Below are positions 3,800 through 25,445 of a DNA stretch of 27,561 nt, piece by piece (positions within the stretch are counted from its first letter, which is position 1; each line of letters begins with the position of its first letter). Made by a program: the position numbers and the translations under genes. Below the pieces are notes generated by a model. That model had not been told where the DNA came from and did no database searches. It worked only from the letters and a program-made list of their open reading frames with translations. The stretch comes from Candidatus Woesearchaeota archaeon (GTDB lineage: Archaea > Nanobdellota > Nanobdellia > Nanobdellales > CAZNIQ01), in the NCBI GenBank assembly GCA_964573185.1, contig CAZNIQ010000007.1, forward strand, positions 1-27,561, read 5' to 3'.

Positions 3800-3807
3800 T
3801 TTTAAAT
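3800..3807 (+). promoter_or_regulatory. TATA-like box TTTTAAAT at -31..-24 of tRNA-Cys
   Basis: Position counted from G1 at 3831; same motif and spacing as upstream of tRNA-Ile and the sRNA at 16968. Confidence 0.6.
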
Positions 3808-3830
3808 TATAATTAAAAATCTTATTAAAA

Positions 3831-3904
3831 GCCGCGGTGCCCGAGCGGTCCAAGGGGCCGGGCTGCAGACCCGGTAATCCGGGGTTCGAATCCCCGCCGC
3901 GGCT
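3831..3904 (+). tRNA. tRNA-Cys(GCA): tRNA-Cys (anticodon GCA), discriminator U
   Basis: GCCGCGG UG CCCG AGCGGUCCA AGGG G CCGGG CUGCAGA CCCGG UAAUC CGGGG UUCGAAU CCCCG CCGCGGC U. Confidence 0.85.
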
Positions 3905-4240
3905 TTATAGCATTTCTGTAGGGAATTTCTTTGGAAAATCTATGCTTTGTGTTATTTTTGGTCCTATAAACCATTTAGCAACCCAAGTTCCACAAACTTT
4001 ACAATGTCCAGTATCTGTTATTAACTCGGGTGTTAATTTTATACCACAGAAAGGACACCTAATTTCTTTTTCTTTAACATATTCTCTTAATTCCTTTACA
4101 ATTTGATCTAAATGTTTCTTTAAAACATGTTCAATAGCTTTTTCCCTTATCTTTTTATAACTCCTCTTAAACTTCTTTACTTTTGTAACATCTATTTTAT
4201 ATTCAAATGTACAGTATGGGCAGCTGAAACCTTTGAGCAT
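3905..4240 (-). CDS. zinc-ribbon protein, function unknown (111 aa)
   Basis: Three Cys pairs: CPYC, CPFC and CKVC. The stop codon abuts the tRNA-Cys 3' end. Confidence 0.45.
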   Translation of the reverse strand: MLKGFSCPYCTFEYKIDVTKVKKFKRSYKKIREKAIEHVLKKHLDQIVKELREYVKEKEIRCPFCGIKLTPELITDTGHCKVCGTWVAKWFIGPKITQSIDFPKKFPTEML

Positions 4241-17097: not shown

Positions 17098-17705
17098 AAG
17101 AATTAGAAAAAGTTCATCAAGAGATCTTAAAATGTCAAAGATGTCCTTTATACAAATACATTACAAACAAAGTCCCCGGAGAAGGAGATCCCACTTCTGG
17201 AATAATGTTTATCGGAGAAGCCCCCGGGAGAGAAGAAGATAAACAAGGTAGACCTTTTGTCGGACCAGCTGGTAAACTATTAACAAAGATGATTGAAGAA
17301 AAATTGGGAATTCAAAGATCAAAAGTTTATATCACAAATGTTTTGAAATGTAGACCCCCAAATAATAGAGATCCTAAACCAGAAGAAATAGAAGCCTGCT
17401 CAATATGGTTAAAGAAACAGTTAGAGATTATAAAACCAAGAGTGGTTGTAACATTGGGTAGATACTCTACAGAATGGATATTCAAATATTTCGGTTTAAA
17501 ATTCACAAAAATTTCAGAAGTTAGAGGAAAAGTATATACTGTTAAAAAATGGGATCATGTAACTTATATAATTCCTACATATCATCCTGCAGCAGTTTTA
17601 TATCATCCGCAATGGAAAGAAGCTTTCGAAAGAGATTTTGAATTGATTAAGAAAGTTATAGAAGGAAAAGAAAAGAAGCCTAAAACATTGGTAGATTTCT
17701 TTTAA
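17049..17705 (+). CDS. udg: family 4 uracil-DNA glycosylase (Fe-S type)
   Basis: CQRCPL...GEGDPTSGIMFIGEAPGREEDKQGRPFVGPAGKLL...VYITNVLKCRPPNNRDP...HPAAVLY. The only in-frame ATGs upstream of the CxxC motif lie in the sRNA C box, so the true start is uncertain. Confidence 0.85.
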   Translation: MMMSGFAENDEWHGTLKELEKVHQEILKCQRCPLYKYITNKVPGEGDPTSGIMFIGEAPGREEDKQGRPFVGPAGKLLTKMIEEKLGIQRSKVYITNVLKCRPPNNRDPKPEEIEACSIWLKKQLEIIKPRVVVTLGRYSTEWIFKYFGLKFTKISEVRGKVYTVKKWDHVTYIIPTYHPAAVLYHPQWKEAFERDFELIKKVIEGKEKKPKTLVDFF

Positions 17706-17778
17706 GCCGCGGCCGGGATTTGAACCCGGGACCTGCGGGTTACGAGCCCGCCGCTCTACCGGGCTGAGCTACCGCGGC
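17705..17778 (-). tRNA. tRNA-Thr(CGU): tRNA-Thr (anticodon CGU), discriminator U
   Basis: rc: GCCGCGG UA GCUC AGCCCGGUA GAGC G GCGGG CUCGUAA CCCGC AGGUC CCGGG UUCAAAU CCCGG CCGCGGC U. The discriminator shares 1 nt with the UDG stop codon on the opposite strand. Confidence 0.9.
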
Positions 17779-23624: not shown

Positions 23625-23696
23625 GGGGCCGTAGTCTAGCGGCATGACGCCGCCCTGACGAGGCGGAGGTCCGGGGTTCGAATCCCCGCGGCCCCA
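23625..23696 (+). tRNA. tRNA-Val(GAC): tRNA-Val (anticodon GAC)
   Basis: GGGGCCG UA GUCU AGCGGCA UGAC G CCGCC CUGACGA GGCGG AGGUC CGGGG UUCGAAU CCCCG CGGCCCC A. Confidence 0.88.
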
Positions 23697-23780
23697 GCCG
23701 CGGTGCCCGAGCGGTCCAAGGGGTCGGTCTGGAGAGCCGATGGCCGTAAGGCCTCCGGGGTTCGAATCCCCGCCGCGGCG
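23697..23780 (+). tRNA. tRNA-Ser(GGA): tRNA-Ser (anticodon GGA), class II, discriminator G
   Basis: GCCGCGG UG CCCG AGCGGUCCA AGGG G UCGGU CUGGAGA GCCGA UGGCCGUAAGGCCUC CGGGG UUCGAAU CCCCG CCGCGGC G. Starts at the base after the tRNA-Val discriminator. Confidence 0.88.
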
Positions 23781-25445
23781 CTAGGATAAAGCATTTTTTA
23801 AGACAAGCTTCAATAAATCTTCAGAATCTATTTTATAATTATATCTTCTCCAATCGTACTCAACTATTTCCTTTTCTTTGATAATTGTTATGTCTAGTTT
23901 TTCTAAGGGAATATATTTTTTTAAAACATTAAATAACAAATTGAAATCACCCTGTATTATTTTTCTTTTTTCTATCTTTACCTTTCCCTTCCATTTTGGA
24001 TTAAAACTTTCAGGAAATTTCTCTTCAACGGAATACATAAATTCTTTTTTAACATATACTTTTCCTATAGGAGTATAAAAATAAACAATTTCTCCCATTT
24101 CTAAACCCTTTTTTAAAGCTTCCCTTACTTCTCTTAAGGTAGCTCCTGTAATTTCCTTAATCCATTCCTCTGGCAGTGGTTCTGTAAGAATATCTAAAAT
24201 CTTTGAAATTCTACTTTTCATCCAAACTTCTTTTAATAAATCAGCAGATATTCCTATGTCAATATATCTTTTTACATGTTCCAAGCCTAACAAAAATAGA
24301 TCGGTATCAATAGTATTTGGGGTAATTATGTAAGTTGCAAATTTCAATGGTTTTGAAGGTCTCATAATTCTTCCGTGTCTTTGAATAAATCTTAAAGGAT
24401 TAGAGGTATGCGACCAAATTATTAGCAAATCTGCTTCAGGTAGATCAACACCTTCCTCACCAGCAGAAGTAGAGATTATTATCTTAGATTTCTTAGCCTC
24501 CTCAAGCTTTTCTCTCATTTTTTCTCTTAACTTACCAACTATTAATGTGACGGAATATTCTTTACTTAGAATTTCATACAGTTTCTTTGCAATAATAACT
24601 CTATCAACAAAAATTATAGCTTTTTCAAAACCTTCATAGACATTCAATATTTTGAAAAGGGTAGGTAATTTATGTAAATCCCTTAATTGGATTATTTTTT
24701 CTTTCAAATCTTCTAATTTTTCAGATAGCTTTGTTCTTTTGGATAAGCTTTCTTTTAGAGCTAAAGCACCATCTGACGAAAAATATTTCAGAGCCAAAGT
24801 ATAAATAAGCTTTTCAGTTCCTTTTGCTTTTTTTCTTCTTTCATCAATTATATCGTATATCTCTTGTTCTTCTTTATTAAAGGGTGCTTCAAAGATATCT
24901 CCAATCCAAGAGGGAACGTATTTTGAAACTAATGGGTGTGTAGCCGGGTATTCCTTTATAATTCCTATTAATTCTTCCAATTCTTTTCTTCTCTTTTTAG
25001 GAATGAAAGCCGTTAAACCCAAAGCATATTCAAAATCTATATTTTTTAATACTTTTACGTAAGCATCTTCTCCAACAGCATGGTGACATTCATCAACTAC
25101 AACAATCTTAAAGTCTTTAGCAAACTCTAAATCATAATAAACTGTTTCAGGAGTTGCTATAACTATTTTTGCTTTCTTCCAAAGTTCTTTTCTTTTCTCT
25201 TTCCTATAAATCCCGTAAATTTTTATAGCATTTAAACCCCAATCTTTATACATCCTTTCAGTTTGTTCAACTAAAATTCTTGTTGGAACAAGAACTAAAG
25301 CCTTATAATCTGGGTGTTTTTTTAGAAGCTCTTTAACAAAATGTATACCAACTATAGTCTTACCTGTTCCTGTGGGTAAAACGATAATGCTTTTCTTTTG
25401 TTTTAAAGCAAAATCGAGAGCTTCTTTTTGATATTCTCTAAGCAT
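23781..25445 (-). CDS. SF2 DEAD/DEAH-box helicase, Hef/FANCM-like helicase module
   Basis: REYQKEAL...VLPTGTGKT (motif I), VVDECHHAVGEDAY (motif II, resembles Hef DEAHRAVGNYAY) and QRHGRIMR (motif VI). 554 aa; no nuclease domain seen. Confidence 0.7.
   Translation of the reverse strand: MLREYQKEALDFALKQKKSIIVLPTGTGKTIVGIHFVKELLKKHPDYKALVLVPTRILVEQTERMYKDWGLNAIKIYGIYRKEKRKELWKKAKIVIATPETVYYDLEFAKDFKIVVVDECHHAVGEDAYVKVLKNIDFEYALGLTAFIPKKRRKELEELIGIIKEYPATHPLVSKYVPSWIGDIFEAPFNKEEQEIYDIIDERRKKAKGTEKLIYTLALKYFSSDGALALKESLSKRTKLSEKLEDLKEKIIQLRDLHKLPTLFKILNVYEGFEKAIIFVDRVIIAKKLYEILSKEYSVTLIVGKLREKMREKLEEAKKSKIIISTSAGEEGVDLPEADLLIIWSHTSNPLRFIQRHGRIMRPSKPLKFATYIITPNTIDTDLFLLGLEHVKRYIDIGISADLLKEVWMKSRISKILDILTEPLPEEWIKEITGATLREVREALKKGLEMGEIVYFYTPIGKVYVKKEFMYSVEEKFPESFNPKWKGKVKIEKRKIIQGDFNLLFNVLKKYIPLEKLDITIIKEKEIVEYDWRRYNYKIDSEDLLKLVLKNALS

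Follow-up and report, generated by a model that had tools for sequence, protein, structure and literature searches.

The tRNA-Cys of a nanoarchaeal genome has the body of its serine tRNAs, an old and widespread trait

The window, meaning the whole stretch of DNA analyzed here (27,561 nt), is contig 7 of a genome assembly of 593,553 bases in 37 contigs, with a G+C content of 30% and an estimated completeness of 89%. The family to which this genome belongs has no second member among the genomes that we compared. tRNA genes were called with ARAGORN and with the Rfam tRNA model RF00005 (gathering score 29); ARAGORN reported eight tRNA genes in the window and 43 tRNA calls in the whole genome. The features of the window that concern us are the following:

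Positions 3800..3807, plus strand: promoter-like A/T box, ~24–31 nt upstream of position 1 of tRNA-Cys
Positions 3831..3904, plus strand: tRNA-Cys(GCA), 74 nt (Rfam RF00005, 62.2 bits; ARAGORN)
Positions 17705..17778, minus strand: tRNA-Thr(CGU), with the acceptor stem and U73 of tRNA-Cys and a class I D arm
Positions 23625..23696, plus strand: tRNA-Val(GAC), abutting tRNA-Ser(GGA) with no spacer (Rfam coordinates, adjacency check)
Positions 23697..23780, plus strand: tRNA-Ser(GGA), 84 nt (ARAGORN; Rfam, 51.8 bits)

ARAGORN places the limits of tRNA-Cys at 3830–3905 and those of tRNA-Ser(GGA) at 23697–23781.

The acceptor stem of tRNA-Cys consists of seven base pairs, all of them G/C. Its D arm is of the class II (Ser/Leu) type, with a 3-bp stem, a G13/A22 mismatch that leaves positions 13 and 22 unpaired and a long, enlarged D loop. 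The variable loop measures 5 nt, far from the class II long arm, which exceeds 10 nt and has a stem of its own. Both the GCA anticodon and U73 expected of a cysteine tRNA are present, and this gene is the only tRNA-Cys found among the 43 ARAGORN calls from the 89% complete genome. The A/T box lies at a predicted promoter position that would yield a leaderless tRNA-Cys transcript.

Because the minimum-energy fold of the bare tRNA-Cys sequence is not a cloverleaf, we relied on the covariance-model score, which at 62.2 bits is well above the gathering score, and on covariation. Across 13 distinct tRNA-Cys orthologs, compensatory changes occur in all four stems, and the variable loops are A/U-rich and 5–7 nt long. 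The compensatory changes indicate, at the level of sequence comparison, that tRNA-Cys is a maintained, functional tRNA. The genome encodes both a SerRS and a CysRS (397.8 bits, an open frame of 481 aa). A profile search of the genome for SepRS gave a best score of 58.6 bits against a cut-off of 380.65 bits; with CysRS present and no SepRS at the cut-off, cysteine is probably attached directly.

In tRNA-Ser(GGA), the variable arm is 15 nt long and the discriminator is G73. The gene follows tRNA-Val(GAC) without a spacer, which leaves no room for a separate promoter, and the two genes are presumably co-transcribed. None of the relatives sampled has this spacer-free Val–Ser arrangement; a comparable spacer-free pair, Cys–Leu(UAG), occurs in one genome of the comparison, G010. 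Another local arrangement of tRNA-Ser(GGA) is conserved in nine Nanopusillus-type genomes, which are otherwise scrambled: its distance to tRNA-His(GUG) is ~1,031–1,038 nt in each. We found no archaeal RNase P RNA (RF00373) in the study genome, at 89% completeness, and RNase P has been reported absent from Nanoarchaeum equitans. If RNase P is absent here too, a single cut at the 3′ end of tRNA-Val would also create the 5′ end of tRNA-Ser.

An earlier note on this DNA, made from the sequence alone, had claimed that tRNA-Cys and tRNA-Ser(GGA) are identical in their first 27 nt and in the 26 nt before the discriminator. Reading the two sequences bears this out letter for letter, so that, of the 74 nt in tRNA-Cys, 53 belong to identical blocks. 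What differs is likewise what had been listed: the anticodon arm, the variable region (5 versus 15 nt) and position 73 (U versus G). We then compared tRNA bodies, defined as the acceptor stem, nt 8–27 and the T arm (~51 positions). The body of tRNA-Cys is at distance 0 from all three tRNA-Ser (UGA, GGA and GCU) and at distance 2 from tRNA-Leu(CAA), with a median of 15 over the 42 other calls in the genome. Its D arm is letter-identical to those of the three tRNA-Ser and of tRNA-Leu(CAA), as expected from the Ser/Leu-type assignment in the note, and its unpaired D loop is likewise identical to that of tRNA-Ser. The Ser family is the only one in the study genome that matches tRNA-Cys in all three arms. 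The tRNA-Thr(CGU) gene of the window, for example, is at distance 0 in the acceptor stem, 10 in the D region and 3 in the T arm, which means that the acceptor stem by itself is not unique to Cys and Ser.

The note had named equal sharing of these arms among all tRNAs of the genome as an outcome that would point to GC-driven uniformity. With Ser at 0 and the median at 15, the arms are not equally shared, and the Cys–Ser likeness is specific rather than a product of general GC uniformity. A related explanation is convergence under heat and GC constraint, by which a hyperthermophile such as this archaeon would have few all-G/C stems at its disposal and two tRNAs would come to resemble each other without being specially related. 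The genome does use only about a dozen acceptor-stem sequences for its 43 tRNA calls, other families have stems in common (Arg and Ile, for instance, in all three of the complete tRNA sets described below), and distances between tRNAs for different amino acids are low in hyperthermophilic archaea (PMC4810243). GC pressure on stems, however, leaves the unpaired D loop unconstrained, yet this loop is identical too, and a distance of 0 from tRNA-Cys is reached by Ser only. Convergence is therefore already disfavored, and we consider it quite improbable; the lineage-specific acceptor stems reported below add to the case against it.

The note had also raised the reuse of tRNA halves, by which Cys and Ser would be assembled, or would descend, from common 5′ and 3′ half-genes in the manner of Nanoarchaeum. 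The setting gives the idea some appeal: the genome is nanoarchaeal, others of its tRNA genes have long inserts closed by GC-rich helices, and the origin of archaeal tRNAs by combination of halves has been proposed (PMC2237900). The position of the differences speaks against it. The differing block (~nt 27–47) is central and runs across the 37/38 junction, which leaves neither the 1–37 half nor the 38–73 half common in full. Furthermore, split tRNAs are encoded in separate pieces with GC-rich complementary junctions, whereas each of the two genes here is contiguous and lacks an insert, a leader and a complementary clamp. We regard half-gene reuse as extremely improbable.

The interrupted tRNA genes of the study genome do not involve Cys or Ser. 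On contig 25 (5080–6243), tRNA-Gln(UUG) contains a 1089-nt insert that is nearly filled by a 354-aa open frame, for which a Pfam scan returned no match; the insert is closed by a 13-nt GC-rich helix resembling split-tRNA leaders. On contig 4 (34915–35594), a tRNA gene called Lys(UUU) by ARAGORN is interrupted by 585 nt, and an 18-nt GC helix closes this insert; a frame of 205 aa on its opposite strand matches the LAGLIDADG_3 domain (E = 2.4e-9). A third tRNA gene with a long insert (419 nt according to ARAGORN) lies on contig 26 (8021–8515), and its assignment as Pro(GGG) is a miscall.

BLAST-type searches of relatives, followed by sequence retrieval and re-annotation, yielded tRNA-Cys from 14 further genomes of the order. 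The relatives, several of whose genomes are incomplete, include Nanoarchaeum equitans Kin4-M, Nanopusillus acidilobi, Nanobdella aerobiophila, Nanoarchaeota archaeon YN1 and a genome that is probably that of Nanoclepta minutus, judging by its matching tRNA-Cys and adjacent tRNA gene. Complete tRNA sets were available for three genomes, namely the study genome and, as rebuilt sets, N. equitans and G027, a DPANN genome of another order that is labeled Woesearchaeota. All 14 order genomes have the Ser/Leu-type D arm on tRNA-Cys. Ser-like tRNA-Cys occurs in N. equitans, Nanopusillus, Nanobdella and probably Nanoclepta, and it is also found in the sister DPANN lineage of G027 and in some Thermoprotei. 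The tRNA-Cys of N. equitans is at distance 1–3 from its own Ser tRNAs (median to others, 18) and that of G027 at distance 6–7 (median, 19), with Ser the nearest family in both. In G034, a genome from another order of the same class, Cys and Ser have the D-arm architecture and T arm in common, and their acceptor stems are two pairs apart.

We also scanned one genome per species, covering 185,579 species, for an exact pattern joining a Ser-type D arm to a Cys anticodon loop. Of the 26 matches, 21 fell in tRNA-Cys genes, including a single bacterial gene, and the other five were bacterial matches without a tRNA call. The taxa with tRNA-Cys matches are Nanoarchaeales, two ‘Woesearchaeota’ genomes, four Thermoprotei-type genomes and one Chloroflexia bacterium, a set that underestimates the spread of the trait because the exact pattern is strict. 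A relaxed pattern matched 15 of 201 sampled Thermoprotei-class genomes. Acceptor stem and D arm are common to Cys and Ser in all six Thermoprotei genomes with both genes, and the T arm as well in three, in a sample that was picked by its Ser-type D-arm pattern and thus speaks only for Thermoprotei with that arm. In the Chloroflexia bacterium, the acceptor stems of Cys and Ser differ. Two further observations concern the Thermoprotei genes themselves (loci L213–L226): all Ser-like tRNA-Cys genes carry an anticodon-loop intron, and several adjoin an almost invariant tRNA-Glu(UUC).

The note had called a class II D arm on tRNA-Cys unusual. Given its presence in 14 order members, the sister lineage and some Thermoprotei, this D arm is normal for these lineages, and it is found on one bacterial tRNA-Cys as well. 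In Pyrococcus furiosus, tRNA-Cys is similar to tRNA-Thr and its D arm is an ordinary one, a type from which the D arm of the study genome differs (PMC13206607). Ser-like tRNA-Cys is old and widespread, and it is not universal.

This distribution also bears on the recent derivation that the note had proposed. In the version that we weighed, the old tRNA-Cys of the study genome gave way to a tRNA-Ser copy that had shed its variable arm. Two measurements would fit: tRNA-Cys shows no differences from its own tRNA-Ser and two from the nearest foreign tRNA-Cys, and its anticodon stem is a single base pair away from that of tRNA-Ser(UGA). The type itself, however, long predates the genome, being present throughout the order members, G027 and Thermoprotei, and none of the 14 order genomes keeps an unremolded tRNA-Cys. 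We rejected a recent origin in the study genome on these grounds and judge this derivation very unlikely. The Cys–Ser sharing is real and specific, and it is neither recent nor confined to one genome.

Protein-level synteny around tRNA-Cys gave no matches between the study genome and its relatives, which made positional orthology unusable. On contig 55 of G027 (4,259 bases), tRNA-Cys also occupies 3831–3904; the flanks have no similarity to those in the window, and the shared position is a coincidence of coordinates.

Among the 22 genomes from which both genes were recovered, the acceptor stems of Cys and Ser are identical in 20. The stem comes in three variants that follow lineage:

GCCGCGG: study genome and Nanopusillaceae
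GCCGCCG: Cys and each of the four Ser in N. equitans
GCCGGGG: G027 and six Thermoprotei

The two exceptions each involve one pair, which changed in Ser in Nanobdella aerobiophila and in Cys in G010. Of 78 family pairs, Cys–Ser is the only one whose stem is common in all three complete sets and has a different sequence in each; Arg and Ile, by comparison, have one invariant stem in common in all three. Convergence on a single optimum would not be expected to yield three variants, each common to Cys and Ser within its lineage. Independent drift can also hardly account for double compensatory changes that affect Cys and all Ser isoacceptors together along the same branches.

Such joint change might reflect a shared selective constraint rather than gene conversion, if one protein that handles both Ser- and Cys-tRNA reads their acceptor and T helices and both families track the same optimum as this partner evolves. 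Candidates would be an elongation factor tuned to side chains that are both small and polar, an enzyme of tRNA modification or a factor involved in proofreading. Besides the concerted change of Cys and all Ser isoacceptor stems between lineages, the presence of the same stem on one tRNA-Thr, which carries another small hydroxyl amino acid, in both the study genome and N. equitans is in line with this proposal. The Cys and Ser T arms, however, have diverged freely in Nanopusillus-type genomes, N. aerobiophila and G010 tolerate a Cys/Ser stem mismatch, and the partner is hypothetical; we consider the constraint unlikely. A more speculative proposal, to which we give little credence, is that the lock-step change seen in DPANN and TACK archaea marks a functional link, either through an unrecognized protein that reads the acceptor helix of the two tRNAs or as the trace of cysteine entering the code on an arm-less serine tRNA, as in the coevolution theory.

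A maximum-likelihood tree of the bodies, poorly resolved over its 51 columns, groups the Cys bodies with the Ser bodies of their own lineage in the study genome, N. equitans and Thermoprotei, and the Nanopusillaceae Cys genes form a separate group. A single clade of all tRNA-Cys bodies was not rejected by the AU test (p = 0.105, with only 51 columns). We therefore do not claim several origins as proven, and a single origin of tRNA-Cys followed by parallel change is compatible with the test. In Nanopusillus-type genomes, the T arm of Cys matches tRNA-Leu and not tRNA-Ser, and the Cys genes lie closer among themselves than to the Ser genes of their respective genomes. Homogenization is thus not uniform, and the T-arm match suggests mosaic exchange between Cys and long-arm tRNAs rather than a strict Cys–Ser link.

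What separates the two tRNAs of the study genome agrees with what is known of their recognition. Published cysteine identity depends chiefly on U73 and the GCA anticodon, and in archaeal systems the G30–C40 pair contributes, more weakly, to serine identity (PMC9976931). Because G30–C40 is present in both tRNA-Cys and tRNA-Ser here, discrimination would have to rest on position 73, the variable arm and the anticodon. The proposal in the note that the differing modules coincide with the CysRS and SerRS determinants is upheld by the literature (PMC9976931).

We favor, with moderate confidence, an old Ser-type scaffold that is common to Cys and Ser by descent, is kept alike by concerted evolution and leaves identity to three modules. 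This reading starts from what we observed, namely the identity of the arms, its distribution, the co-variation of the stems and the presence of both CysRS and SerRS. The two genes would be ordinary, separately encoded, working tRNA genes belonging to one old family of ‘serine-type’ bodies. In Nanoarchaeales, the sister DPANN lineage and part of the Thermoprotei, tRNA-Cys would use the Ser acceptor stem, D arm and, usually, T arm, with a short variable loop in place of the long arm of Ser. By analogy with other organisms, from whose study the identity rules are taken, CysRS would read U73 and the GCA anticodon, and SerRS would read G73 and the long variable arm. The choice of amino acid would then be set by three small modules and the common scaffold would be neutral for identity, which would explain how Cys and Ser can have it in common. 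As the homogenizing mechanism, we infer that the likeliest is gene conversion between tRNA-Ser copies and tRNA-Cys at their 5′ and 3′ ends, with selection protecting the three identity modules during conversion. Concerted evolution is the best supported of the inferences that we draw, short of a demonstration.

One genome thus uses serine and cysteine adaptors that differ only in the discriminator, the anticodon arm and the presence of one arm, a contrast that may be useful in thinking about identity switches and in the design of orthogonal tRNAs. If the stem co-variation holds in a full survey, it would provide evidence for concerted evolution between archaeal tRNAs for different amino acids.

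Sharing of this kind had already been noted. In a phylogeny of 1953 archaeal tRNAs that included N. equitans, Fujishima et al. (2008) listed Cys–Ser among the pairs clustering ‘indistinguishably’ and took the clustering to favor the coevolution theory of the genetic code; this is a one-line remark on a neighbor-joining tree (PMC2237900). The passages that we consulted do not mention the arm-by-arm identity, the missing variable arm as the chief contrast or the co-variation of stems by lineage (PMC2237900). We found no description of the arm-by-arm identity or of the acceptor-stem co-variation in the open-access literature, and the co-variation appears to be a new detail. Bernhardt (2016) held that tRNA-Cys, as a class I tRNA, had apparently not evolved from tRNA-Ser (PMC4810241); for these lineages, our data speak against that view.

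Several known systems resemble the Cys–Ser pair in part. In alloacceptor remolding, described in metazoan mitochondria (PMC4783518) and as anticodon shifts in eukaryotes (PMC3923123), a tRNA is nearer to another family of its own genome than to its orthologs. The same holds, by small margins, for the study genome (0 to its own Ser versus 2 to the nearest foreign Cys) and for N. equitans (1 versus 5). Remolding itself proceeds by recent duplication and anticodon change within one structural class (PMC4783518, PMC3923123), whereas Ser-like tRNA-Cys is ancient and lineage-wide and, having lost the long arm, crosses the boundary between class II and class I. The bacterial selC*-type tRNA-Cys and allo-tRNAs (Mukai et al. 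2017, reviewed in PMC7609411) also combine a Sec/Ser-type body with U73 and GCA, and the selC*-type tRNA-Cys is charged by CysRS; they are extra tRNAs that retain a long variable arm and whose acceptor/T geometry is 8/4 or 9/3 (PMC7609411). By contrast, the tRNA-Cys studied here combines 7/5 geometry with a variable loop of 5 nt, and no second tRNA-Cys was found in its genome. An earlier case of a class II body that turned into a class I tRNA is tRNA-Tyr, which kept its amino-acid identity, whereas here the short-arm form serves another amino acid than the long-arm form. A likeness in process may lie with the serine tRNA genes of fission yeast, dispersed genes in concerted evolution by gene conversion, with their identity-critical parts preserved. 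Known cases of tRNA gene conversion involve genes for the same amino acid. The likeness is that unlinked tRNA genes are kept alike, and the difference is that the conversion proposed here, between Cys and Ser, would run across amino acids.
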